A stretch of 61,085 bases of DNA. Source: an uncultured bacterium (lineage in GTDB: Bacteria; CAZDME01; JAYEMH01). The stretch's first letter is position 1. Each line of letters opens with the position of its first letter. Positions 1,815 through 61,085 of this stretch are shown here, piece by piece. The notes below the pieces were generated by a model. That model was given only the letters and a program-made list of their open reading frames with translations, searched no databases and had not been told where the DNA came from. The position numbers and the translations under genes are program-made. The stretch covers positions 1 to 61,085 of the forward strand of contig CAZDME010000001.1 in NCBI GenBank assembly GCA_964506785.1, read 5' to 3'.

Positions 1815-1960
1815 TCCCCAAAAACCACCATAATTGGATACAGGTAAGAAAATTTTAACAAAAAAAATTTTTTTGTCAACTTTTTTTTGAAGTCTTTTAA
1901 ACAAAGAAGACTTCTAAAACTTTCGGTACGCCAAACAAGTGCGCGGGTAGACAGCCAAAA

Positions 1961-1976
1961 TGTTTCACGGGAAACA
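1961..1976. promoter_or_regulatory. parS-like site (15/16)
   Basis: TGTTTCACGGGAAACA, one mismatch to the palindrome TGTTTCACGTGAAACA found three times downstream. Confidence 0.65.
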
Positions 1977-1980
1977 GTCT

Positions 1981-2053
1981 GGCTCATAGCTGTTAGCTCT
2001 TGGTCGATAGTCAAAAAAACTCCATTCCTTTAACCATGAGCCATGAGCCAAAC
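1981..2053. repeat. family-A heptamer element (GCTCATA units, then reverse units)
   Basis: ggctcata gctgtta gctcttg gtcgata, then a spacer, then aaccatg agccatg agccaaa. Shares the 17-mer AACCATGAGCCATGAGC with 30838-30854. Confidence 0.8.
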
Positions 2054-3124: not shown

Positions 3125-3215
3125 GTAGATGATGGCTTCCATTAGCTGTTGGCTCAGAGTTCATCGCTCATGGCTAAAAGAAAACACCTTTTTTGCCATT
3201 AGCTAAGAGCCAGAA
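3125..3215. repeat. family-A heptamer array abutting parS
   Basis: gtagatg atggctt ccattag ctgttgg ctcagag ttcatcg ctcatgg ctaaaag, then gccatta gctaaga gccagaa immediately before parS. Confidence 0.75.
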
Positions 3216-3231
3216 TGTTTCACGTGAAACA
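3216..3231. promoter_or_regulatory. parS site (perfect)
   Basis: TGTTTCACGTGAAACA. Confidence 0.85.
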
Positions 3232-3329
3232 ATTTGGCGGCGGCACCTAGAATCCCATAAAAAAGTGGGTGACAAAAGGGCAAAAAAGCCCAAAAAAGCG
3301 AAAAGGACTGAAGAAAACAGGGGTAAATT

Positions 3330-4994: not shown

Positions 4995-5057
4995 GACTCG
5001 TTGATTGTGGCTGATGGCTCATAGCTGATTGCTTCCGCCAAAAGAGCTATGAGCCAA
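4995..5057. repeat. family-A heptamer array abutting parS
   Basis: gactcgt tgattgt ggctgat ggctcat agctgat tgcttcc gccaaaa gagctat gagccaa. Confidence 0.75.
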
Positions 5058-5059
5058 AT

Positions 5060-5075
5060 TGTTTCACGTGAAACA
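5060..5075. promoter_or_regulatory. parS site (perfect)
   Basis: TGTTTCACGTGAAACA. Confidence 0.85.
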
Positions 5076-5077
5076 AT

Positions 5078-6487
5078 TTGGGAATGAGGGGTAAAGTGAG
5101 AAACTCCTATAGCGATACCATAGCTGCCATTGCCACGCCTTTAGGAGAGGGGGGTATTGGCATTGTCCGTTTGAGCGGCTCTCAGGCGGTATCTATTGCC
5201 GCCCGGATTTTCCGCTCGAGCCCCCGGCGAAATATTAATGAGTTACCCAGCCATAGCCTTCACTATGGGCAGGTGGTTTCCCGGACAAAGCCCATAGATG
5301 AAGGATTGCTGGCCATTATGAGGGCCCCCAATTCATATACCCGGGAAGATGTAGTTGAAATCCAGGCCCATGGCGGACCCATTCCTTTAGAGAAAATTCT
5401 CCGTTTGGTTATTGAGGAAGGTGCCCGGCCGGCTGAACCGGGAGAATTTACCCGGCGGGCTTTTCTTAACGGCCGGATGGACTTAGTCCAGGCTGAGGCG
5501 GTGGCCGATTTAATTCGGGCCCGGACAGAAGGCGCCTATGAAATTGCCCTGGGACAGCTTTCCGGCCGTTTTTCCGCGAAGGTAAAGGATTTACGGCAGC
5601 GGTTGATAAAGTGTTTAACCATAATCGAGGCAAGTATTGATTTCCCCGAGGAAAGCGGGTTGGGCCCGGGGAAATCGTTTCAGAAAACCCTTCGTCTTCT
5701 CGGTGACGAACTGCTTAAGCTGGAAGAAGGGGCGGAAAAAGGAAGAATCATCCGGGAAGGGATTAGGGCGGTTATTATCGGCCGGCCGAATGTGGGCAAA
5801 TCAAGTTTAATGAATGCCCTCTTAAAAGAAAAAAGGGTTATTGTTACCCATATACCAGGAACCACCCGCGATGTCGTTGAAGAAATAGTCAATATCGAGG
5901 GTATCCCTTTAAGGATTGCGGATACGGCCGGCTTGCGAAAAACCAGGAAGCTGATTGAAATTCAGGGTGTTGCCCAAAGCCGTTCTTATCTGGACAAGGC
6001 GGATTTAGTTATTATCGTTCTGGACGGGCACCAGAAACTGAAGAAAGAAGATTTGGATATTATAAAATTAGTCAAAGAGAAAGGGAAAAAAGCCATTGCG
6101 GCCGTCAATAAGAGCGATTTGCCGATTCGATTGGAAATGCCCCGGTTAAAGCGACATTTTCCCGCCGGGATGACTGTCCGGATTTCAGCCAAATGTCTTG
6201 CGGGGATTTCGAATTTCAACCGGAAAATCGCCCCCGCCCTGGGAATAAAAAAACCCGGGAACGGAAGCGAAAATATCTTAGCCAGCCGCTTAAGGCACCA
6301 GATTAGCTTGGGAAATGCCCGGAGTAATGTCCATAATGCCCTTCTGGCCTGGCAAAACGGACTATCTGCTGAGTTTATTGCCTTTGACCTTTGGCAGTCG
6401 GTTGAAGCCTTAGATGAAATCTTGGGGCTGAATTATAAAGAAGATTTATTGGATAAAATATTCCGAGAATTTTGCATCGGAAAATAA
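5078..6487 (+). CDS. mnmE: tRNA modification GTPase MnmE
   Basis: 469 aa. G-domain motifs GRPNVGKSSLMNAL, DTAGLR and NKSDL, and the C-terminal CIGK. Start uncertain (TTG 5078, ATG 5084 or GTG 5096). Confidence 0.92.
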   Translation: MGMRGKVRNSYSDTIAAIATPLGEGGIGIVRLSGSQAVSIAARIFRSSPRRNINELPSHSLHYGQVVSRTKPIDEGLLAIMRAPNSYTREDVVEIQAHGGPIPLEKILRLVIEEGARPAEPGEFTRRAFLNGRMDLVQAEAVADLIRARTEGAYEIALGQLSGRFSAKVKDLRQRLIKCLTIIEASIDFPEESGLGPGKSFQKTLRLLGDELLKLEEGAEKGRIIREGIRAVIIGRPNVGKSSLMNALLKEKRVIVTHIPGTTRDVVEEIVNIEGIPLRIADTAGLRKTRKLIEIQGVAQSRSYLDKADLVIIVLDGHQKLKKEDLDIIKLVKEKGKKAIAAVNKSDLPIRLEMPRLKRHFPAGMTVRISAKCLAGISNFNRKIAPALGIKKPGNGSENILASRLRHQISLGNARSNVHNALLAWQNGLSAEFIAFDLWQSVEALDEILGLNYKEDLLDKIFREFCIGK

Positions 6488-6490
6488 GCA

Positions 6491-6660
6491 AATTTAGACA
6501 TTTTTGAACAAGTCTGGACAATTTTGGATGCCTGAAATTGAGAAATATTTCTTGGAAGAAAGGTTTTTTCGACCCGAAGAAACTCGGGCGAGAGCAACGC
6601 TTAAAACGACAAAAATGGACATATTTTGGCATTTTTGTACATATTTGGACAATTACTGGC
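6491..6660 (+). repeat. 10-nt-phased TGGACA-like repeats (family D, two clusters)
   Basis: tttagacatt tttgaacaag tctggacaat tttggatgcc (6491-6530). aaatggacat attttggcat ttttgtacat atttggacaa ttactggcat (about 6613-6662). Confidence 0.7.
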
Positions 6661-6707
6661 ATGGTTTCCTGAGAATCTTTCTGTTCTTTGCATTTGCTGA
6701 AGTTGCC

Positions 6708-6757
6708 TGTGGATAACCTGGAGACATCTGTGGATAACTTAATACATTTGTGGACTG
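6708..6757 (-). promoter_or_regulatory. DnaA-box trio
   Basis: TGTGGATAA at 6708-6716 and 6729-6737 (both 9/9 as the reverse complement of TTATCCACA). TGTGGACTG at 6749-6757 (7/9). Box starts are spaced 21 and 20 nt apart. Confidence 0.75.
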
Positions 6758-6780
6758 GGGTAGGCAAGTCTCAACTTTTC

Positions 6781-6830
6781 TGGACAAATTTGGACACTTC
6801 TGGACAAATTTGGACACTTTTGAAGACATA
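6781..6830 (+). repeat. tandem 2 x 20-bp (4 x 10-bp) TGGACA repeat
   Basis: tggacaaatt tggacacttc tggacaaatt tggacacttt, followed by a degenerate fifth unit tgaagacata. Lies immediately upstream of parA. Confidence 0.85.
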
Positions 6831-6847
6831 AAAGGGAGTTTTTTGTT

Positions 6848-7684: not shown

Positions 7685-7792
7685 AAATAACGAGCGAACG
7701 ATATAACGGGAAACACGATAACGAGATAACGGACAACGGAATAACGTGATAACGAGCGATGAGATAACGTGATAACGGGGGACGTGATAACG
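7685..7792 (+). repeat. family-B array (nGATAACG units, 7-8-nt period), largest copy
   Basis: At least 13 consecutive units ending in ACG: gaaataacg agcgaacg atataacg ggaaacacg ataacg agataacg gacaacg gaataacg tgataacg ... tgataacg ggggacg tgataacg. Confidence 0.9.
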
Positions 7793-7810
7793 AAGTCGAG
7801 GAGGAAAAAC

Positions 7811-9661: not shown

Positions 9662-9690
9662 GACGAGATAACGGGATAACGAAAAAAACG
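9662..9690 (+). repeat. family-B array upstream of def
   Basis: gacg agataacg ggataacg aaaaaaacg. It ends 8 nt before the def ATG. Confidence 0.8.
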
Positions 9691-10199: not shown

Positions 10200-10996
10200 G
10201 ACACAGAGAAAAACGGAGCCGGGTAAATATAATCCTCTTTGGGCCGGTTTCTTCCCGGCGCCTGGGGAAATCCTTAGGCATTAATCTTATCCCGCCCAAA
10301 ACCTGCTCTTTGGATTGTATCTATTGCCAGCTTGGCAGCACCCCCAAAACCTCGGTAAAGCGTTATTCTTATCTTTCCGCGAACGAAGTCGAGACAAACC
10401 TAAAAAGATTTTTGGCCAAAGGAGGACGGGCCGATTATCTTACTCTTTCCGGGGGGGGGGAACCCACTCTTAACGCTCAGATTGGAAAGATTATCAGGCG
10501 GATTAAAACAATAAGCAGACTGCCGGTAGCCGTACTTACCAACGCCACCCTTTTTACTTCCCCTAAGGTGCGGCGAGAATTGCTGGCGGCGGATTTAGTT
10601 TTGCCTTCTCTGGATGCCGCCCGCCAAGCAACCTTTAAAAAAATTAATCGCCCCCATCGCAGATTAAAGATTAAAAATATCATCCAGGGCTTGCAACTCT
10701 TTCGCCGTCAATTTAAGGGGAAATTGTGGCTGGAAATTATGTTGGTAAGAAATATAAACGACTCAAAAAAAGAGCTTGAAGCCTTAAACAAAGCCGTATT
10801 GGCCATTAAACCGGATAAGATTCAGTTAAATACCGTGGTCAGGGAGCCGGCGGAAAAATTTGCCCATCCACTGACCGTCAGCCAACTCCAGAAAACAAAG
10901 AAATTTTTTGGCGACCGCTGTGAAATAATCAGCGGGCGCAAAGATAAAAGGAAAAGAATGCTTAAAGCCCTCAAGCCAAATTATCACACTTCGTAA
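10172..10996 (+). CDS. radical SAM protein (function unknown)
   Basis: 274 aa. CSLDCIYC (CxxxCxxC) cluster. Overlaps def by 28 nt. Its last codons and TAA stop lie inside the REP hairpin. Confidence 0.8.
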   Translation: MVKRNTKNVGHREKRSRVNIILFGPVSSRRLGKSLGINLIPPKTCSLDCIYCQLGSTPKTSVKRYSYLSANEVETNLKRFLAKGGRADYLTLSGGGEPTLNAQIGKIIRRIKTISRLPVAVLTNATLFTSPKVRRELLAADLVLPSLDAARQATFKKINRPHRRLKIKNIIQGLQLFRRQFKGKLWLEIMLVRNINDSKKELEALNKAVLAIKPDKIQLNTVVREPAEKFAHPLTVSQLQKTKKFFGDRCEIISGRKDKRKRMLKALKPNYHTS

Positions 10997-11007
10997 GTGT
11001 GATAATT
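10979..11007. repeat. REP hairpin (RAYT-flanking, loop CGT)
   Basis: aattatcacactt-cgt-aagtgtgataatt, a 13-bp perfect stem. Confidence 0.9.
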
Positions 11008-11030
11008 TTCCAAAAAAAAGGCAACTAAAA

Positions 11031-11723
11031 ATGAAGAGCAAGGATATTAAAAAATTCGGCAGCACATTAGTTACGGGAGAAATTTACCATATTTTTAGTA
11101 AAAGCATCGCTGGTTTTAGAATATTTAAGCGGAAAGCGGAATTTAAAAGGATAAAAGAGATGCTTCAATATTATGTTTTTGAAAAACCTTCCATAAGATT
11201 TTCTTATTTTCTCCGGGCGCCTCAGAAAGAAAAAGAGAAATTCGTAGAAGCCGTTTCTAAAAATAATATTCAGAATAAAGGAAAAATTGTTAACATAGTT
11301 GCCTACTGTATTATGCCTACCCATATTCACTTAGTTCTGCAGCCTCTCAAGGAAAGGGGGATTTCCATATTTATGAAAAATCTTCTTGATAGCTACACGC
11401 GTTATTTTAATGTCAAATATAAAAGAAAAGGGCCTCTTTGGGAAGGAAGATTTAAAAGAGTTTGGGTCGGGTCAGAAAATCAACTCCTTCATCTTACCAG
11501 ATATATTCATTTAAACCCGGTTACTGCGGGGTTAGTTAAAAGGCCAGAGGAATGGTTTGCATCCTCCTTTAACGAATATATAGAAGGTGATAGAAAGGAT
11601 AAGCTTTGTAGATATGATGCACTTTTAAAGATTTCTCCAGAGTCCTATAAAAAATTTGTAAAAGAAAGAATTTTTTATCAGAAACAACTTGCAAAAATTA
11701 AGGAATTGACCTTTGATGTATAA
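11031..11723 (+). CDS. REP-associated tyrosine transposase (IS200/IS605 Y1 family, RAYT-like)
   Basis: 230 aa. HUH motif in CIMPTHIHLVLQP and catalytic-Tyr motif LTRYIHLNPV. Flanked by REP hairpins. Confidence 0.85.
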   Translation: MKSKDIKKFGSTLVTGEIYHIFSKSIAGFRIFKRKAEFKRIKEMLQYYVFEKPSIRFSYFLRAPQKEKEKFVEAVSKNNIQNKGKIVNIVAYCIMPTHIHLVLQPLKERGISIFMKNLLDSYTRYFNVKYKRKGPLWEGRFKRVWVGSENQLLHLTRYIHLNPVTAGLVKRPEEWFASSFNEYIEGDRKDKLCRYDALLKISPESYKKFVKERIFYQKQLAKIKELTFDV

Positions 11724-11728
11724 CCATT

Positions 11729-11753
11729 TTATCACACTTCGTAAGTGTGATAA
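11729..11753. repeat. REP hairpin (RAYT-flanking, loop CGT)
   Basis: ttatcacactt-cgt-aagtgtgataa, an 11-bp perfect stem. Confidence 0.9.
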
Positions 11754-11779
11754 GTTGGGAGGATTGAAACGGGAAAATT

Positions 11780-12310
11780 ATGATGAGGAATCTAGCAAGA
11801 AGCATATCAGCCGTTTTAGTGAGTGTGCTCCTTTTAATCCCGGGTGAGGCTCGGCCTATGGGAATGAAAACGCCTCAAAAAGCTCAGGGGCAGGTCGGAA
11901 CCAAGATTCCCAAAGTTATTTTTACCCGTCTTGACGGAAAATTTTTTACTTCGGCTAAACTTAAGGGGAAAGTGGCCATACTCGATTTCTGGGCCACCTG
12001 GTATCCTCCCTGCCGTTCAGCTATTCCTGCCTTGATTGAACTTTACGAGATTTATGGCGGCAAAGAATTCGAAATTGTCAGCATCGCTTTGGATAAAGAT
12101 ATCAAGGAATTGAAAAGATTTGTGAAAGAAATAGAAATAAGCTATCCGATTGTTACGGGCAATAAAGGCATTGAACGGGCTTTCGGCGGCATTGAGGCGA
12201 TTCCAACAACTCTTTTAGTCGATAAAAAGGGGACGATTCGTTTTCGCTTCGTTGGCTATACGCCAAAAGAGGTTTTTGAAGAAAAAATCAAACTTCTTCT
12301 TGGGGAGTGA
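11780..12310 (+). CDS. TlpA/ResA-like thioredoxin-fold protein, secreted
   Basis: 176 aa with a signal peptide. Thioredoxin-fold region ILDFWATWYPPCRSAIP; the active site reads WYPPC, with a single Cys. Confidence 0.75.
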   Translation: MMRNLARSISAVLVSVLLLIPGEARPMGMKTPQKAQGQVGTKIPKVIFTRLDGKFFTSAKLKGKVAILDFWATWYPPCRSAIPALIELYEIYGGKEFEIVSIALDKDIKELKRFVKEIEISYPIVTGNKGIERAFGGIEAIPTTLLVDKKGTIRFRFVGYTPKEVFEEKIKLLLGE

Positions 12311-16543: not shown

Positions 16544-16573
16544 TGTGATACTTAGATAATGAAAGACTTGTCA

Positions 16574-16602
16574 TTTTATCACACTTACGAAGTGTGATAA
16601 AA
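16574..16602. repeat. REP hairpin (dispersed copy, loop ACG)
   Basis: ttttatcacactt-acg-aagtgtgataaaa, a 13-bp perfect stem. Confidence 0.9.
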
Positions 16603-16620
16603 TGTGTTTTGGCACATTTT

Positions 16621-16658
16621 AAACGTGATAACGAACAACGAAATAACGTGATAAAGCG
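16621..16658 (+). repeat. family-B array, forward units
   Basis: aaacg tgataacg aacaacg aaataacg tgataaagcg. It ends 4 nt before ATG 16663. Confidence 0.8.
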
Positions 16659-19450: not shown

Positions 19451-19492
19451 AAAACAGTTTACAGTTAACAGTGGACAGTGAACAGTCGGCAG
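19451..19492 (+). repeat. family-C heptamer array (six units ending in CAG)
   Basis: aaaacag tttacag ttaacag tggacag tgaacag tcggcag. Confidence 0.9.
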
Positions 19493-19644: not shown

Positions 19645-19673
19645 TTTTATCACACTTACGAAGTGTGATAAAA
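19645..19673. repeat. REP hairpin (dispersed copy, loop ACG)
   Basis: ttttatcacactt-acg-aagtgtgataaaa. Confidence 0.9.
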
Positions 19674-19693: not shown

Positions 19694-19744
19694 AACGAGA
19701 TGCCGGGCAACGGGATAACGTGATAACGATATAACGAGATGACG
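19694..19744 (+). repeat. family-B array
   Basis: aacg agatgccgggcaacg ggataacg tgataacg atataacg agatgacg. Confidence 0.8.
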
Positions 19745-27181: not shown

Positions 27182-27221
27182 AAAAGGAATAAGTTAATAA
27201 TGAGCAACGAAACCCCCGCCA

Positions 27222-27250
27222 TTTTATCACACTTACGAAGTGTGATAAAA
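27222..27250. repeat. REP hairpin (dispersed copy, loop ACG)
   Basis: ttttatcacactt-acg-aagtgtgataaaa, with flanks cccgcca and gtgtggtgttttctgctttaaacg. Confidence 0.9.
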
Positions 27251-27270
27251 GTGTGGTGTTTTCTGCTTTA

Positions 27271-27329
27271 AACGAGACAATGTGATAACGGGACAACGAG
27301 ATAACGAGCAACGGGATAACGGGATGACG
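27271..27329 (+). repeat. family-B array containing the gatB start codon
   Basis: aacg agacaatg tgataacg ggacaacg agataacg agcaacg ggataacg ggATGacg. Confidence 0.85.
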
Positions 27330-28802
27330 AATTATCAAGTAGTTATTGGTTTAGAGGTTCATCTTCAGTTAAAAACGGAATCAAAAATTTTCTGCGGCTG
27401 CTCGGCTGAATATAACCTTGAACCTAATATTCAGGGTTGCCCAGTTTGTGCGGGTTTGCCCGGGGTGCTCCCGGTTTTAAACGAAAAAGCCAAACGCTTT
27501 ACTTTAATGGCGGCACTGGCCTTAAATTGTAAAATAAATCCCTTTTCCAGTTTTTCCCGCAAGCAATATTTTTATCCGGATTTGCCTAAGAATTACCAGA
27601 TTTCCCAGTACGATTTACCCGTGGCCGAAAATGGAAGCCTGGAAGTTGAAATAGGAGGGAAAATAAAGAAAATCGGGATTACCAGGGTTCATTTAGAAGA
27701 GGATGCCGGAAAACTTTTGCACTATATCGGCTCGCGGGCCTTGGAGCACAGCCTGGTTGATTTAAACCGTTCCGGACTGCCTCTTTTGGAAATTGTCAGC
27801 GAGCCGGATATGTATTCCTCGGAGGAGGCCTTTAGCTATCTGCAAGAGTTAAAGTCACTCATCCAGTATATCGGGGTAAGCGATTGTAATATGGAAGAAG
27901 GCAGCCTTCGCTGCGATGCCAATATTTCCATAAGAAAGGACAAAACCCATGTCTTGGGGGTAAAAACAGAACTTAAAAACATGAATTCTTTTCGGGCGGT
28001 AAAAAAAGCCCTGGATTATGAGGTAAAAAGGCAAAAAGAAGTTTTATCTCAAAGGAAAAAAATTGTCCAGGAAACCAGGCTCTGGGATGAAAAAGAAGGA
28101 ATTACTCATCCAATGCGGCGCAAGGAAGAAGCTCACGATTACCGTTATTTCCCCGAGCCGGACTTATTGCCCCTCTTGACAGATAAGGCGGAAATAGAAG
28201 AAATAAAAAAGACCCTTCCGGAGCTGCCGGCCCAACGAAGAAAGCGCTTCCAGGGCCAATATAGTTTATCGGCTTACGATGTTTCTGTTATTACCTCTGA
28301 GAAAGAATTGTCGGATTTTTATGAAGATGTCGTTAAGGAATATGCCAAGAAAGAAAAATTAAAACCAGAGATTCACAAAAAAATAGCCAACTGGATTATG
28401 GGGGATTTTAAAGCCCGGCTTAAAGACCAAAAGATTAGTGTCCTTGAATTACCAGTTAGCGCCCGTCATTTATCTGATTTAGTTAAATTGATTGAAGACG
28501 GGAAAATTAACCTCCGGCAGGCTAAAGAGGTTTTAAAAGAAATGATGGAAGAAAAATCTAAAGAAACGCCTTTACCCTCTGTTATCATCGGACAGAAAGG
28601 GGTGGGGCAAATTAGCGACCAAGGTGCCATAAAAGAGATTATCCGAGAAGTGATTGATGAAAATAAAAAAGCAGCTGAACGCTTGCGGCAGGGGGAGGAA
28701 AAAGTTTTAGGATATCTCATCGGGCAGGTAATGAAGAAAACTCAAGGGAAGGCGAACCCCAGCTTAATTAATAAAATTTTGAAAGAAGAACTTGCTTCGT
28801 AA
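27324..28802 (+). CDS. gatB: Asp/Glu-tRNA amidotransferase subunit B
   Basis: ORF 27282-28802 trimmed to ATG 27324 (MTNYQVVIGLEVHLQL, a typical GatB N-terminus). Confidence 0.95.
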   Translation: MTNYQVVIGLEVHLQLKTESKIFCGCSAEYNLEPNIQGCPVCAGLPGVLPVLNEKAKRFTLMAALALNCKINPFSSFSRKQYFYPDLPKNYQISQYDLPVAENGSLEVEIGGKIKKIGITRVHLEEDAGKLLHYIGSRALEHSLVDLNRSGLPLLEIVSEPDMYSSEEAFSYLQELKSLIQYIGVSDCNMEEGSLRCDANISIRKDKTHVLGVKTELKNMNSFRAVKKALDYEVKRQKEVLSQRKKIVQETRLWDEKEGITHPMRRKEEAHDYRYFPEPDLLPLLTDKAEIEEIKKTLPELPAQRRKRFQGQYSLSAYDVSVITSEKELSDFYEDVVKEYAKKEKLKPEIHKKIANWIMGDFKARLKDQKISVLELPVSARHLSDLVKLIEDGKINLRQAKEVLKEMMEEKSKETPLPSVIIGQKGVGQISDQGAIKEIIREVIDENKKAAERLRQGEEKVLGYLIGQVMKKTQGKANPSLINKILKEELAS

Positions 28803-30788: not shown

Positions 30789-30865
30789 CTGATTGCTCAT
30801 AGCTCTTAGTGGATAACTAACTAATCTTTTTTCGTCTAACCATGAGCCATGAGCAAAGAGCAAAC
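30789..30865. repeat. family-A heptamer element, homologous to 1981-2053
   Basis: ctgattgctcatagctcttagtgg, then a spacer, then taaccatgagccatgagcaaagagcaaac. Confidence 0.8.
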
Positions 30866-30885
30866 AGCCAGGGGGAGTTAGGAGA

Positions 30886-30920
30886 CAAACTGTAAACTGT
30901 CCACTGTACACTGTTAACTG
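30886..30920 (-). repeat. family-C heptamer array, inverted orientation (units ending in CTG)
   Basis: caaactg taaactg tccactg tacactg ttaactg. This is the reverse complement of the CAG-type units at 19451-19492. Confidence 0.88.
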
Positions 30921-30932
30921 GAAACTTAACCC

Positions 30933-32774: not shown

Positions 32775-32809
32775 ACGAGAAAACGAGATAACGGGATAAC
32801 GCAATAACG
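32775..32809 (+). repeat. family-B array upstream of ctpA
   Basis: acg agaaaacg agataacg ggataacg caataacg. Confidence 0.85.
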
Positions 32810-36306: not shown

Positions 36307-36347
36307 CGAAATAACGTGATAACGAGCAACGATATAACGAGATAACG
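36307..36347 (+). repeat. family-B array
   Basis: cgaaataacg tgataacg agcaacg atataacg agataacg, preceded by gtgaatg gtggaat (family E). Confidence 0.88.
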
Positions 36348-36379
36348 ATTAAGGAGATAGCGAGTTTGAGGAAAAAACC

Positions 36380-37048: not shown

Positions 37049-37107
37049 TGCCGGTGAATAGTGCATGGTGAAAACGAGATAACGAAATAACGAGGAACGA
37101 GATAATG
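37049..37107 (+). repeat. family-E (GTGAATn) units followed by a family-B array
   Basis: tgccggtgaatagtgcatggtg, then gaaaacg agataacg aaataacg aggaacg agataatg. Confidence 0.85.
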
Positions 37108-38770: not shown

Positions 38771-38797
38771 TTTTTCACACTTACGAAGTGTGATAAA
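38771..38797. repeat. REP hairpin (dispersed copy, slightly degenerate, loop ACG)
   Basis: tttttcacactt-acg-aagtgtgataaa. The left arm lacks one A. Confidence 0.8.
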
Positions 38798-38818
38798 GGT
38801 GTGATAAAATCTGCTTTT

Positions 38819-38877
38819 AACGGGACAACAAGTAACGAAATGACATGATAACGAGATAACGGGATGGCGTGATAACG
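38819..38877 (+). repeat. family-B array upstream of fhs
   Basis: aacg ggacaacaagtaacg aaatgacatgataacg agataacg ggatggcg tgataacg. Confidence 0.85.
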
Positions 38878-42200: not shown

Positions 42201-42267
42201 GGATTCGTGAATGGTAAATCGTGAATAGTGCAAACGAGATAACGTGATAACGGGAAACGGGATAACG
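42201..42267 (+). repeat. family-E heptamers followed by a family-B array
   Basis: ggattcgtga atggtaaatc gtgaatagtg, then caaacg agataacg tgataacg ggaaacg ggataacg. It ends 4 nt before ATG 42272. Confidence 0.88.
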
Positions 42268-42271
42268 AAAA

Positions 42272-44041
42272 ATGGTGGATAGAAAAACGGGAAGAAAACA
42301 CCTGAGGCATTATAAAAGCTTGGGAGAGCTGCTGGTAGAGATGCAGATTGTCAATGAAAAGCAGCTGGAAGAGTTGATGCTTGAGCAGAGAAGAACCGGA
42401 GAATTGCTCGGGCGGATTGTCGTCCGCCAGGGATTAGCCAGCGAAAAGGAAATTATGGATGCTTTGGCGGCGCAAACCGATATGCCGGTGGTAACTTTAA
42501 GCCGTTTGAAAATTAACCCAAAGATTATTAATAAAATCTCTCCCAGTTTAGCCAGGATTTATAAAGTTGTGCCCATTAGAGAGGAAGGCAAAGTTTTGCT
42601 TGTTGCTCTTTCTGACCCTTTTAATACCCAGGTTCTTGATGATTTGCGTTTTATTCTGAATAGTGAAGTGAGGGGAGCTATCGCCAGTGATAAAGATATT
42701 GACCAGGCCTTGCAGAAATATTACGGAAAGGAAACAGAAAGCCTGGAGGTATTGCTGCAAAAAATGGAGTCTACTCCCTTGATGCAAAAGGAATTAGAAA
42801 AGGTGAGTGAACCCGATATTGCCAGTCTTCAGGAATTAGCCCGGGAAGCCCCAATTGTTAAACTGGTAAATCTGGTTTTGATTCAAGCGGTTAAGGACCG
42901 GGCCAGTGATATCCACTTTGAACCCTATGAAGACATCTTTAGAATCCGCTATCGTTTGGACGGTCTTCTTTATGAAATGACTCCTCCGCCGGCTCGCCTC
43001 GGTTTAGGTATTATCTCCCGTCTTAAAGTAATGGCTGATTTGGATATTGCCGAGCGAAGACTTCCTCAAGACGGCCGCATGGAGATAAATGTTGAAGGCA
43101 AGCGCATTGATATCCGAGTATCAACCCTGCCTACCGCTTTTGGTGAAAGTGTGGTTTTGCGGATTCTCGACCGCAGTCTGGTGATGCTTTCTTTAAACGA
43201 AATTGGGCTTTTACCTGATAGCTTAGCGGTTATAGAGGGGCAGATTAAACGTCCCCAGGGAATGGTTTTAGTGACCGGGCCGACTGGCTGCGGAAAAACC
43301 ACTACCCTGTATTCAATTTTAAAAAGAGTAAATGAGCCGGGTTATAAAATTATTACTACTGAGGATCCAGTTGAATATACTATTACCGGTGTCATTCAGG
43401 TTCCGATTAAACCGCAGATTAAACTGAATTTTTCCACTTGCCTAAGGCATATTTTACGCCAGGATCCCGATATCATCATGGTTGGTGAAATTCGTGACCA
43501 GGCCACAGCAGAGATTGCCATTCATGCCGCTCTTACCGGACATTTGGTTCTCAGTACCCTGCATACCAACGATGCTCCAGAAACGATTACCCGTCTTATC
43601 GATATGGGAGTGGAACCTTTTTTAGTTACCTCGACCCTGCAGATAATTATTGCCCAGCGCCTGGTAAGAATTTTATGCCCTGAGTGTAAGGAAAGTTATC
43701 AAGCCAGCCCGAAAGATTTAGTTGCTCTGGATATTAACCTGGATGAGGTCACTTCTAAAAACTTTGAACTGGATGAAGAGGGGAAATTAATTTTATATCG
43801 TCCCAAAGGCTGTCCTTTATGCCGCCAGATTGGATATCGCGGACGAACGGGGATATTTGAAATATTGACCCTTAATGATGAAATCCGGGAGTTGATTGTT
43901 AACCGGGCTTCAGCCGAGGAAATTCGAAAAATTGCCAGTCAGGCCGGGATGAGGAATTTAAAACTTGATGGTTTGCAAAAAGCATTGCAGGGAATAACCA
44001 GTTTAGAAGAGGTCCTCAGGGAAACGCAAACCTTTATATAG
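42272..44041 (+). CDS. GspE/PilB-family secretion ATPase (paralog 2)
   Basis: 589 aa. T2SSE_N domain, Walker A GPTGCGKTTT, tetracysteine CPEC...CPLC. Confidence 0.9.
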   Translation: MVDRKTGRKHLRHYKSLGELLVEMQIVNEKQLEELMLEQRRTGELLGRIVVRQGLASEKEIMDALAAQTDMPVVTLSRLKINPKIINKISPSLARIYKVVPIREEGKVLLVALSDPFNTQVLDDLRFILNSEVRGAIASDKDIDQALQKYYGKETESLEVLLQKMESTPLMQKELEKVSEPDIASLQELAREAPIVKLVNLVLIQAVKDRASDIHFEPYEDIFRIRYRLDGLLYEMTPPPARLGLGIISRLKVMADLDIAERRLPQDGRMEINVEGKRIDIRVSTLPTAFGESVVLRILDRSLVMLSLNEIGLLPDSLAVIEGQIKRPQGMVLVTGPTGCGKTTTLYSILKRVNEPGYKIITTEDPVEYTITGVIQVPIKPQIKLNFSTCLRHILRQDPDIIMVGEIRDQATAEIAIHAALTGHLVLSTLHTNDAPETITRLIDMGVEPFLVTSTLQIIIAQRLVRILCPECKESYQASPKDLVALDINLDEVTSKNFELDEEGKLILYRPKGCPLCRQIGYRGRTGIFEILTLNDEIRELIVNRASAEEIRKIASQAGMRNLKLDGLQKALQGITSLEEVLRETQTFI

Positions 44042-44131
44042 CTCATAGCTGATAGCTCATCGTTCATAGAAAACCCATGAGCTAAGAGCCAGGGGCTATA
44101 AACTAGAAGAGCAAGTCAGGAGAGAGAAGCC
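44041..44131 (+). repeat. family-A heptamer tiling of the whole intergenic gap
   Basis: gctcata gctgata gctcatc gttcata gaaaacc catgagc taagagc caggggc tataaac tagaaga gcaagtc aggagag agaagcc, then ggg and ATG 44135. Confidence 0.85.
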
Positions 44132-45371: not shown

Positions 45372-45409
45372 CGTTATTTCGTTATCTCGTTGCTCGTTAT
45401 ATCGTTGCC
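45372..45409 (-). repeat. family-B array, reverse units
   Basis: cgttattt cgttatct cgttgct cgttatat cgttgcc. Confidence 0.88.
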
Positions 45410-45441
45410 CGCTCTCTCGCTGAAAGCAGAAAACCTCATAC

Positions 45442-45470
45442 TTTTATCACACTTACGAAGTGTGATAAAA
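45442..45470. repeat. REP hairpin (dispersed copy; flanks inverted, loop still ACG on the + strand)
   Basis: ttttatcacactt-acg-aagtgtgataaaa. The flanks gaaagcagaaaacctcatac and aggcggaggg are the reverse complement of the flanks at the other copies. Confidence 0.9.
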
Positions 45471-50687: not shown

Positions 50688-50809
50688 GGTATTTATATAC
50701 GGCTGGATAAAGGCAAATCCGCCGCAAGGCGGAGACGCAAAGCTACAGATTCTTGCTAAAGGCAAGGAAGTCTGAGTTACCTAGGATATAGGCGATTCAG
50801 CTTTTTTTT
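50688..50809 (+). ncRNA. candidate ~120-nt small RNA (unknown family)
   Basis: Lies between the promoter at 50653-50681 and the stem 50772-50800 plus T8 (50802-50809). Contains a GNRA-capped hairpin ccgcc-gcaa-ggcgg (50719-50732). No convincing ORF. Confidence 0.3.
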
Positions 50810-60200: not shown

Positions 60201-61085
60201 ATCAAGGTGAGCTAAAGGAAGAAGAGGGCGGATGGACTTGGTTAAAAGGAAATAATAGCGCCTTTACTTTTGCCTCCCTTGTTTTTAAGAAAAATTATCT
60301 ACTTCTTGCTTCTAACAGTTTAAATTTTAGCTGGCGAAATAAAAAAAGGCCTCTACTTAGAATTATTGAAAATTATAGAGAGAAAGTAAGAAGGCTTTGT
60401 AGAAAAATAAAGGAAATTTCTAAAAGGCCCAACCAGAGGCATTGTAAGATAAAAAAAGCCAGAAGAGCCTGGAAGAAATATCGCCATTATTGTTGGGAAA
60501 AACGTTGGTGGCGTCGGTTTTGGAAAGGTAAGAAAAAAGATATCTGGGAAATTACTAAGACCAAAACAAGCTATATTTACGACGCCGAAAATCGTCTTCT
60601 TTCATACGAGGAGATAAGCTTGGATACTGATGAACTTCTTTCTACCGGGCAATATAATTATGATGCCAATGGCAACCGATTTGAGAAAATAAAAGAAATT
60701 TACGGTCAGGGAGATTCGGGAAGCGAAAAAGCCATTGAGACTTGGGTCTATCAGTATGATTATGAAAATAGGCTAAAAAACGTTCTGAAAAATGGAGAGG
60801 CAGTGGCTAACTATTTTTATGATGCTTTGGGCAAACGGATTCAAGCAGAAGAAGGGGGAGAAATAAACAAATTTTATTATGACGGACTATTAGCCATTTT
60901 AGAGCGAGACAGCGACGGGGAGGTAGTATCTTTCTACACCCGCGGCCTGGATTTAGGCGGCGGAATCGGCGGCATAATCAGCACCAAAAATTTGCACCTC
61001 GTAGGTGCAAGTTTTTTTCATTATGATGGACGGGGAAATGTGATAGAATTAAGCGATGAAGCCGGTGTCTCCCAGGCAAGCTATA
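57263..61085 (+). CDS. RHS/YD-repeat protein, 3'-truncated by the window edge
   Basis: Open frame from ATG 57263 to the window end with no stop by hand translation (not in the track because it never terminates). Signal peptide, DPINLTNGNLF...GLPLEVSRTYNS plug motif, dozens of YD repeats, and the start of the RHS core (GGGIGGII...FFHYDGRGNV). Confidence 0.9.
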   Translation, partial: MGKLSRIFKVFIGCLILFVSLLVIIVSPSATANDYADKYPANFRLSEDISRLSNWIKPRYYYQMSLRWSGIPGATGYEIEMYSSHWLSRDAYGNYSGLGPGFRTTRKTGTAVSFETFLTGEKDREYDIEELRQEAWWRKIVRATTSQRISVRGRTLFGWNPYSGGPGKPFSNWSSYGYTEYEEEEEKGNHGQPKDEKASAGGDPINLTNGNLFSTTPEFSISTRGLPLEVSRTYNSRSTYNGPLGYGWTHSFNLTLEEDPYNPENGAWYYLFLRRGDGRALYFQRLMDGSFIGPRGDFSTLVEETDGSYLLQEKHGVLSQFNAEGKIVSMSDRQGNETTFTYDVEGRLIEVIGPAGRVISLSYNVNSKISQIIDPAGRTYSYAYDGEDNLVQATDPLGQITTYNYDENHNLTFITYPDGTHTYFSYDDNDRATATWNDGDNQKVNLVYDTENRATQITDALGRTTTYIYNYDHQITAIIDPEGSETKYVYDGANLTCTSITNALGRILQFSYDEKGNLLSSVDALGNTTTYTYEPNYNFCTGIIDPLGQTTNFIYEAAGNLIETVDALGNSSHFSYDTYGELISFTNPKGSSTQYGYDTYGNLLQVTDALGNIQEMSYDILGNCLSIKDRRANITQYNYDLLNRLTQHILPDGNTINYTYDPVGNCTSVTNQLGETYTYQYDAVDRLTGLTDSLGNITVFGYDLVGNRTVITDAQGKITNFSYDSLNRLIKETSPLGNETSYLYDVLGNVILLTQAGGQEINYQYDENNRLIQITYPDGETIYYLYNATGQCIEITSSGGEIDTFSYDALGRLLQLDRGNGGDSISYAYDSLGSRLAMIDQNNGQTLYQYDVLGRLVELSNPEGEITQYIYDAEGNVIELSRANGSRTIYTYDNLNQLVKLENLSSSDQLLSSFQYEYDAAGRKIKEIDSDGATIAYTYDSSGRLIEERKYEIVDEEEREIYARIYTLDALGNVLEETSHQGELKEEEGGWTWLKGNNSAFTFASLVFKKNYLLLASNSLNFSWRNKKRPLLRIIENYREKVRRLCRKIKEISKRPNQRHCKIKKARRAWKKYRHYCWEKRWWRRFWKGKKKDIWEITKTKTSYIYDAENRLLSYEEISLDTDELLSTGQYNYDANGNRFEKIKEIYGQGDSGSEKAIETWVYQYDYENRLKNVLKNGEAVANYFYDALGKRIQAEEGGEINKFYYDGLLAILERDSDGEVVSFYTRGLDLGGGIGGIISTKNLHLVGASFFHYDGRGNVIELSDEAGVSQASY
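60992..61018 (+). other. terminator-like hairpin inside the RHS ORF
   Basis: ttgcacct-cgt-aggtgcaa (8-bp perfect stem) followed by gTTTTTTT and preceded by AAAAAt. Confidence 0.4.

Follow-up and report, generated by a model that had tools for sequence, protein, structure and literature searches.

A Y1 HUH gene between two copies of one hairpin

The 61,085-nucleotide (nt) contig CAZDME010000001.1 from an uncultured bacterium carries, directly downstream of a radical SAM gene, a gene for a 230-amino-acid (aa) Y1 HUH protein that is bracketed on both sides by the same DNA hairpin. We refer to the whole stretch as the window and give all positions within it; the coordinates of the individual features are collected in Table 1. 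The subject of this analysis is the cassette formed by the gene and its two hairpins, and its probable relation to the REP-associated tyrosine transposases (RAYTs) and the repetitive extragenic palindromic (REP) sequences that accompany them, an arrangement known as a REPtron.

An original prediction, made by inspection of the window, had assigned the 230-aa open reading frame (ORF) to the Y1 transposases on the basis of its HUH and tyrosine motifs, and both can be read directly in the ORF. The HUH motif, P-T-H98-I-H100-L-V-L (THIHLVL), corresponds to nt 11322-11330, and the tyrosine motif, RYIHLNPV, includes a catalytic-type Tyr158 at nt 11502-11504. Further motifs are WE (LWEGRF), YIHLNP and a serine tail (SS, in W..SSF). 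Class-2 Y1 proteins are distinguished by a tyrosine motif of the form Y-x3-NP, as opposed to the Y-x3-Q of IS200 (PMC6006769), and RYIHLNPV is of the class-2 form by which RAYTs are recognized.

Profile searches, which the original prediction had proposed as a check, gave the same picture. The protein passed the Pfam cut-off for Y1_Tnp (PF01797; E 3.8e-9, 37.2 bits, cut-off 23 bits), and its sole match in NCBIfam was to the REP-associated tyrosine transposase model REP_Tyr_transpos (NF047646; E 4e-17, 62.5 bits), while none of the IS200 models in NCBIfam was matched. The best solved structure by sequence was that of Escherichia coli TnpA_REP with a REP hairpin (4ER8), ahead of ISDra2 TnpA. Likewise, when an AlphaFold (AF2) model of the protein, built from 28 homologs (pLDDT 82, pTM 0.81), was searched with Foldseek, 4ER8 ranked at the top, followed by the TnpA proteins of IS608 and ISDra2, with a probability of 1.00. 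Forty columns are invariant in the alignment of these 28 homologs, including His98, His100, Tyr158, Asn162, Trp137 and the second Ser of the tail; PTHxH is invariant across the alignment, and the first tail Ser and Pro163 are near-invariant (in at least 90% of the homologs). A tblastn search of the window returned one copy of the gene, consistent with the prediction that it is present once.

The hairpin is found as identical 25-mers at 10981 and 11729, on either side of the gene, and the five dispersed copies counted in the prediction were located at 16576, 19647, 27224, 38772 (with 1 mismatch) and 45444. Written out with either loop, its sequence is TATCACACTT[ACG/CGT]AAGTGTGATA. The pattern TTATCACACTT-NNN-AAGTGTGATAA occurs 7 times in the 61 kb, with 0.00 occurrences expected from 100 shuffles, and the shorter core CACACTTNNNAAGTGTG recovers the same 7 sites against an expectation of 0.04. 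The hairpin was thus present as predicted, but the 11-bp stem ascribed to it was too short: the stems measure 11-15 bp (10978-11008, 11724-11758, 16572-16604, 27222-27250 and 45442-45470). Their folding energy as single-stranded DNA lies between -10 and -14 kcal/mol and the z-score between -6 and -11; the values for the left flanking hairpin are -11.7 kcal/mol and -11.2. The right flanking hairpin begins 1-6 nt past the stop codon of the RAYT-type gene. All seven copies in the window are singlets, and we found no inverted hairpin doublets (REPINs) in it.

With a stem that is perfectly palindromic, the polarity of the hairpin can be told from its three loop bases alone. Both flanking copies (2/2) carry CGT on the + strand and are therefore direct with respect to one another, as had been noted in the prediction; we additionally observed that the dispersed copies are all of the opposite polarity, with ACG on the + strand (5/5).

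The left hairpin also provides the end of the radical SAM gene, again as predicted. The ORF closes with AAT TAT CAC ACT TCG TAA, so that its last four residues, Tyr-His-Thr-Ser, and the stop codon (10982-10996) lie inside the hairpin. A stop is built into the hairpin, as TAA or TAG at the point where the loop meets the 3' arm. Several RAYT homologs (P0004, P0015, P0048, P0074 and the gene at 4835-5542 of L086, a related species) end in ..HTA, ..YHTA or ..NHTS immediately before their stop codons, and their ORFs enter the hairpin that follows them in the frame used by the radical SAM gene of the window.

Rfam contained no known RNA matching the locus, and a consensus scan for promoter-like matches at the hairpins gave background level only. 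We also considered a reading of the arm TTATCACAC as a DnaA box and rejected it; canonical TGTGGATAA boxes sit elsewhere in the window (6707-6754). Strain variants from other samples (L002 and L003, whose positions 2699-2740 correspond to 11729-11753 of the window) have a 16-nt tandem duplication, ATCACACTTCGTAAGT, in the right hairpin, and a further contig (L091, 4010-4055) has two tandem hairpins with the loops cgc and cgt.

The hairpin accompanies the protein across its family

The protein belongs to a family of more than 3000 homologs that are about 55% identical to it (typically 50-57% over the full length) and that form 614 clusters at 50% identity (E <= 1e-30). Most of them come from bins labelled Candidatus Omnitrophota, labels on which our placement in that phylum is based, and others come from neighbouring candidate phyla. 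Among 72,556 plasmids and 50,697 phages there were no close relatives of the protein, only distant matches to the core domain.

The association of gene and hairpin was assessed at 80 loci with homologs from species-representative genomes, 77 homologs being testable, whose flanks we scanned with a purpose-made hairpin scanner. The majority have a hairpin of their own on each side. Under a strict criterion, which demanded a perfect stem of at least 7 bp with the same core on both sides, the same perfect hairpin flanked 37 of the 77 homologs (48%), compared with 6 of 849 other ORFs of the same loci (0.7%). The hairpins lie close to the gene, at a distance of approximately 0-30 nt on its upstream side and 1-40 nt on its downstream side. 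Of the 37 flanking pairs, 23 are direct, 12 inverted and 2 ambiguous.

Between species, the hairpins differ in the lower stem and have in common the top ..CAC[CT][CT]-loop-[AG][AG]GTG.., with loops that include cgt/acg, ccg/cgg, cag/ctg and gcgta/tacgc among others. In an alignment of 64 flanking hairpins, in which the inner seven pairs had been selected for pairing and the outer seven had not, 84.8% of cells were paired, compared with 37-48% when the partner columns were slid. Compensatory changes, affecting both sides of a pair, were seen in 13 of the 14 pairs, and C-A-C at the top of the stem was almost invariant. The hairpin also tracks the relatedness of the proteins: 9.2 of 10 arm bases are in common where the proteins are at least 80% identical, and 3.9 of 10 where they are less than 60% identical. 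Where a genome has two paralogs, the proteins are 53-60% identical; in the pairs with hairpins that could be detected beside both genes (L027/L078 and L021/L058), the two hairpins are different. RAYTs and REPs have been described as varying together in this manner (PMC2817692, PMC6006769). Together, these data bear out the predicted link between the protein and the hairpin.

The number of local copies varies among relatives. Within +/-10 kb of the gene, most have the flanking two only, and about a dozen loci have 4-9; relatives rich in their own hairpin include L017 (8 copies), L051 (9), L052 (7) and L046 (6). Hairpin doublets stand beside some homologs (L054, L068, L077 and L052).

The cassette is inherited at one chromosomal site

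Two related species, L004 and L086, have the cassette at the same site, in the order mnmE-parA-parB-lipA-def-radical SAM-[hairpin-gene-hairpin]-spermidine-synthase-like (speE-like). Their Y1 protein is 67% identical to that of the window, and the neighbouring proteins are 61-76% identical. As the Y1 protein and its neighbours fall within the same range of identity, the cassette has been inherited vertically together with its surroundings. The right hairpin in these two species is CCCATAATCACACTT-cgt-AGGTGTGATTATGGG and the left one is short, CACACC-gcgta-GGTGTG; their radical SAM proteins end in ..KNHTA, within the equivalent left hairpin.

A third related species, L088, has the same gene order with neither the Y1 gene nor the hairpins, and so provides an exact empty site. 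Gene and hairpins are missing together, so that gain or loss must have affected the cassette as a whole, with precise borders. The empty site may represent the ancestral state or a deletion, the three lineages being about equally distant.

A comparison of the radical SAM C terminus with that of an ortholog without hairpin had been suggested, and L088 allows it: the protein there ends in ..LQKLRRG, with a stop codon 13 nt from the next gene, and the protein of the window ends in ..YHTS. Radical SAM homologs of about 315 aa from Aminicenantes and others have a C-terminal domain of about 45 aa (..RRPVTL.D....LG...) that is missing from the protein of the window and from the three orthologs closest to it (261-288 aa; a comparison that included P0125-P0240). 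We considered whether the cassette had truncated the gene and rejected this explanation, because the cassette-free L088 is also without the domain. Its loss is therefore not the hairpin's doing, and only the last 4-5 codons are.

The cassette had been described as inserted between the radical SAM gene and tlpA. The radical SAM side of this description holds, but in the relatives the gene on the other side is the spermidine-synthase-like gene. As tlpA is missing at this position in L004, L086 and L088, it is an extra gene of the window's lineage and lies outside the conserved context of the cassette.

The cassette lies approximately 4 kb from a probable replication origin (oriC), which occupies positions 6489-6847 between an mnmE-like gene and parA. 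The origin region has two perfect DnaA boxes, of the sequence given above, in a 20-nt repeat, as well as many repeats of the type TTTGGACA, and similar repeats are found in the same place in L088.

Dispersed copies lie in a composite element beside 8-mer arrays

Beyond the flanking pair, all five copies of the hairpin in the window are intergenic (5/5). Rather than standing bare, they belong to a common composite element about 100 nt long, ..CCCCGCC-hairpin-GTGTGATGTTTTCTGCTTTTAACG-(NGATAACG)n, and the stretch 27206-27331 of the window matches copies on contigs of sister metagenome samples at 84-88% identity over 85-127 nt. The original prediction had turned in part on whether the hairpin occurs in the rest of the genome, and we found it on other contigs of the same population or of sister samples, in 4 distinct copies; these came from one metagenome scan that yielded three stretches, two of which cover the same region.

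All five dispersed copies share their spacer with arrays of the 8-mer GATAACGN, whereas neither of the two gene-flanking copies does, and six spacers have 8-mer arrays without a hairpin. The array unit is similar to the hairpin's 3' arm, GTGTGATAA. The arrays occupy about a dozen spacers, in which they usually have the sense orientation and extend as far as the ribosome-binding site or start codon of the gene that follows. Hexamers of the sequence ATAACG are concentrated outside genes, with 29 of 47 in the non-coding 15% of the window. In L004, the spacer orthologous to that of the hairpin at 16576 contains (CAGTTRA)n at 6039-6073 and no hairpin. Arrays with a 7-nt unit (ATAGCTC, CCATGAG or AACAGTN) are also present in spacers of the window, at 2034-2050, 2816-2842, 19453-19486, 30795-30926 and 44038-44069.

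The GC skew is positive over the whole window, and nearly all of its genes are on the + strand, so the uniform loop polarity of the dispersed copies could reflect replication or transcription. All five have ACG on the G-rich strand, a number that is not significant alone (n = 5), and other loci have too few copies for the comparison.

Relation to known Y1 systems

The E. coli REPtron (TnpA_REP/RayT, 4ER8; Quentin subclass 2.2, Bertels Group 2) has the same Y1 HUH fold, and among solved structures its protein is the best match by sequence as well as by fold. It resembles the cassette further in its Y-x3-NP and Trp-Glu/Gln motifs and in its layout, a single-copy gene (here, one copy in the window) between cognate palindromes that also occur dispersed in intergenic DNA. 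The two proteins are, however, only about 21% identical (profile E 2e-7), and the E. coli protein has 165 aa, compared with 230 aa here, where a helical insertion of about 35 aa precedes beta2 and the helical tail is longer. The hairpins differ as well: the one described here is a perfect, tag-less palindrome with neither GTAG foot nor bulge, and it occurs as single hairpins of one polarity, in contrast to the inverted REP pairs or bacterial interspersed mosaic elements (BIMEs) of E. coli (PMC2817692, PMC6006769).

The closest described proteins to the family are those of the TIRYT/subclass 2.1 lineage (Iodobacter WP_130108377 and Pseudomonas aeruginosa WP_016252823). They share the motifs LWEGRFK and RYI(E/H)LNPV, the W..SS(Y/F) tail and a length of about 230 aa, and the motifs fit Table 1 of PMC6006769, in which subclass 2.1 is described by W[EQ], Y[IV]HLNP, an SS tail, a length of about 238 aa and NHVH or NH[YF]H. 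An hhalign comparison of the family profile with one example flanked by terminal inverted repeats (TIRs) gave an E value of 3e-25, with 38% identity over 148 columns, compared with 2e-7 for the E. coli RAYT. Unlike the family studied here, which has PTHxH, the subclass 2.1 proteins have NHVH; they are also without the insertion at residues ~45-85 (about 35 aa, helical, before beta2) and have a longer C-terminal domain. Their genes lie between TIRs with GGGG[AT][CG]A[CG], where the family has hairpins. We observed this signature at both plasmid-borne comparators, located by tblastn, as inverted repeats with GGGGTCAG and GGGGACAG, and found no TIR of the GGGG[AT][CG]A[CG] type around the gene of the window, whose flanks are the hairpins.

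Foot-less hairpins at the gene, with copies elsewhere in the genome, are likewise reported for subclass 2.6 and class 3 under the heading of "atypical secondary structures" (PMC6006769). By description, subclass 2.6 differs in its NH[LIV]H and YIH[QN]NP motifs and its occurrence in Bacteroidetes, and class 3 in its Y-x4-Q motif. The IS200/IS605 elements (IS608, ISDra2) share the catalytic fold and have sub-terminal hairpins of one polarity at both gene ends, but are characterized by Y-x3-Q, by several near-identical copies, by left and right ends that differ and, in many cases, by tnpB; the locus in the window shows none of these features.

Subclass 2.1 (TIRYT, Bertels Group 1) has been reported without REP association (PMC6006769), and the flanks of Group 1 genes as weakly repeated (PMC5581495). 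The family therefore joins a 2.1-like protein to a REPtron-like layout. The protein is not a canonical RAYT. The system is known in kind; what is new is the family, the tag-less symmetric hairpin and the affinity to the REP-less TIRYT lineage. We tentatively raise the possibility, to which we give somewhat less than even weight, that the gene represents an undescribed large RAYT subclass, sister to the REP-less TIRYT/2.1 lineage and yet a true REPtron, with a tag-less symmetric hairpin that would be read through CAC..GTG and a CG loop and not through a GTAG guide. If the gene belongs to such a subclass, REP association would be older or wider among class-2 Y1 proteins than in the current classification; if recognition is tag-less, the choice of cleavage site must operate without the known guide tetranucleotide. 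None of the papers in the literature library that we searched links Omnitrophota with RAYTs.

A probable REPtron-like unit and its alternatives

Taken together, these data make it probable that the cassette is a REPtron-like unit, that is, a gene for a Y1 HUH endonuclease/ligase of RAYT (TnpA_REP) type that is present once, is passed on vertically and stands between two cognate hairpins. The fold and catalytic motifs of the protein are established here, as is its specific, co-varying and family-wide association with the hairpin. So too are the vertical inheritance of the cassette at one site, its presence or absence as a unit and the existence of dispersed hairpin copies.

Several observations weigh against this interpretation. 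The NCBIfam score of 62.5 bits falls below the curated 80-bit cut-off of the RAYT model. By profile, the family is much nearer to TIRYT/subclass 2.1, reported as REP-less (PMC6006769), than to the E. coli RAYT. The flanking pair has the same polarity (CGT on the + strand in both), whereas the original definition of the REPtron called for inverted flanking REPs (PMC2817692; Nunvar 2010). In the systems studied, a GT[AG]G tetranucleotide serves as guide or recognition element and is needed for recognition or cut-site choice (PMC8266576). We found no unpaired GT[AG]G foot on the hairpin, in which pairing continues through the position of the foot (CCATTTTATC.../...GATAAAATGG); GTAA or GTAG does exist at the junction of loop and 3' arm, but there is no conserved unpaired tetranucleotide. 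As the flanking pair stands alone in most related loci, proliferation of the hairpin is not a general property of the family. Finally, because 8-mer arrays lie beside all five dispersed copies and their unit is arm-like, another process may explain part of the dispersal. The predicted REPtron is thus supported in its Y1 fold, Y-x3-NP motif and cognate flanking hairpins, and departs from the canonical type in its model score, its missing foot and its flanks, which are not inverted.

Judging by homology to E. coli TnpA_REP and IS608 TnpA, the palindrome would fold into a hairpin in single-stranded DNA, for example at the replication fork. The protein would then bind it, the main contacts probably being the conserved CAC..GTG at the top of the stem and the loop with its CG, and a metal bound by the HUH motif together with Tyr158 would cut and rejoin the strand beside the hairpin. 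Over evolutionary time, such activity could have placed copies of the hairpin at further intergenic positions; the piece that moves in this genome would be the composite element of about 100 nt found beside 8-mer arrays. The gene itself would no longer multiply and would be kept in place by the host.

We regard as improbable that the cassette is instead an autonomous insertion sequence (IS) of the IS200/IS605 type, whose same-polarity hairpins are its left and right ends and whose solo hairpins are remnants or miniature derivatives. The polarity of the flanking hairpins on the gene's strand does resemble that of IS200/IS605 ends, yet the family includes both arrangements (23 direct, 12 inverted), and the ends seen here are alike rather than distinct. 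The tyrosine motif is Y-x3-NP and not Y-x3-Q (PMC6006769), no IS200 model in NCBIfam is matched, and tnpB is absent. An IS would also account for the all-or-none occurrence of the unit with exact borders, for hairpins so close to the gene, for the differing genomic contexts between species and for the two copies in some genomes. Against this, there is just one copy in the 61 kb, paralogs in the same genome are just 53-60% identical with unlike hairpins where both are detectable, and plasmids and phages are without close relatives. Moreover, one chromosomal site has been held while its neighbours diverged to about 65% protein identity, and the ortholog at that site is syntenic and has diverged as its neighbours have. 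The clustering with bona fide IS200 transposases that the original prediction had named as the contrary outcome was accordingly not what we found.

We think it similarly unlikely that the protein binds the hairpin as a domesticated factor in the service of the host, either in the control of its own or a neighbouring gene or near the origin, and that the hairpins have spread otherwise, for example by slippage or template switching at the 8-mer arrays. The strong conservation of the protein over many lineages would suit such a role, as would the position about 4 kb from the probable oriC, but the catalytic His-x-His and Tyr are invariant, which mere binding would not require. Spread by way of the arrays would fit their presence beside all five dispersed copies, the likeness of the hairpin arm to the array unit and the copy at 45444, where the loop keeps its polarity although the flanks are inverted; it fits less well with the arrays that lack hairpins at six sites. 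Although most relatives have the two flanking copies alone, as a binding factor would allow, L017, L051, L052 and L046 have many local copies of their own hairpin.

It is very improbable that the hairpins are ordinary transcription terminators or mRNA-stabilizing stem-loops found at the gene by chance. Their location in spacers between co-directional genes would suit such a role, as would their folding in RNA, but the stem is AT-rich with no T-run after it, a terminator scan calls none, seven identical 25-mers would be unexpected of independent terminators, and the family-wide counts (37/77 vs 6/849) rule out chance.

To our knowledge, RAYT/REP systems have been studied almost solely in Proteobacteria and Cyanobacteria, and all RAYT biochemistry is based on a GTAG guide beside the hairpin. 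As a probable REPtron-like unit, the cassette would extend this layout to uncultured Omnitrophota-type genomes and to a TIRYT/2.1-related lineage thought to be REP-less. A guide-less substrate that is symmetric but for three loop bases would provide a clean test case for strand and cut-site choice by Y1 enzymes. The three related species, two with the cassette at the same site and one empty, form a natural before/after series for the effect of the cassette on the end of the neighbouring gene. These results leave intact the general view that RAYTs are domesticated transposases passed on by vertical descent.

Other features of the window

Table 1. Positions of the cassette, the dispersed hairpins, the 8-mer arrays and adjacent genes in the 61,085-nt window
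Feature	Position	Strand	Remarks
Y1 HUH gene, RAYT type, 230 aa	11031..11723	+	From ORF list, Pfam, NCBIfam, structure comparison and alignment
Left flanking hairpin	10978..11008		14-bp perfect stem AAATTATCACACTT / AAGTGTGATAATTT; core at 10981; + strand loop CGT (10992-10994)
Right flanking hairpin	11724..11758		Core 11729-11753 equals left copy exactly; + strand loop CGT; outer CCA/TGG pairs lengthen stem
Dispersed hairpin	16572..16604 (core 16576)		15-bp stem; loop ACG on +; intergenic; inverted GATAACGN-type 8-mer arrays on its flanks
Dispersed hairpin	19645..19673 (core 19647)		Loop ACG on +; intergenic; in ~100-nt composite repeat of hairpin, TTTTCTGCTTT spacer and 8-mer array
Dispersed hairpin	27222..27250 (core 27224)		Loop ACG on +; intergenic; in ~100-nt composite repeat
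Dispersed hairpin	38772..38796		1 mismatch; loop ACG on +; intergenic; composite repeat; 3' arm tandemly duplicated (GTGTGATAAAG x1.9)
Dispersed hairpin	45442..45470 (core 45444)		Loop ACG on +; intergenic; flanks inverted relative to other composite copies, loop not
8-mer arrays	7687-7793, 9663-9682, 16622-16654, 19709-19744, 27271-27330, 32775-32809, 36307-36364, 37073-37093, 38818-38877, 42233-42267, 45372-45419 (reverse)		Window coordinates
Radical SAM gene, 274 aa	10172..10996	+	3' end enters left hairpin
TlpA/ResA-like thioredoxin-fold gene	11780..12310	+	Not at this position in three related species

The TlpA/ResA-like protein has W-Y-P-P-C in place of the usual W-C-x-x-C, and hence a single active-site cysteine.

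A second palindrome family, with the core TGTTTCACGTGAAACA, has four copies within 3 kb near the start of the window (1955-1994, 2786-2824, 3198-3238 and 5042-5081), the longest of which is 37 nt, GAGCTATGAGCCAAATTGTTTCACGTGAAACAATTTGG. The outer arms of these palindromes resemble the ATAGCTC and CCATGAG 7-mer arrays.

Towards the other end of the window, a cyclic di-GMP-I riboswitch lies on the + strand at 50702-50784 (Rfam RF01051, 59.8 bits). A second type of hairpin, AAAAATTTGCACCT-CGT-AGGTGCAAGTTTTT, is found at 60985-61012 and fits the family-wide top CACCT-cgt-AGGTG (1 match, 0.01 expected). It is in frame (..STKNLHLVGASFF..) within an RHS/YD-repeat ORF that runs off the end of the window, and it may represent the repeat that goes with a second RAYT paralog located in another part of the genome.

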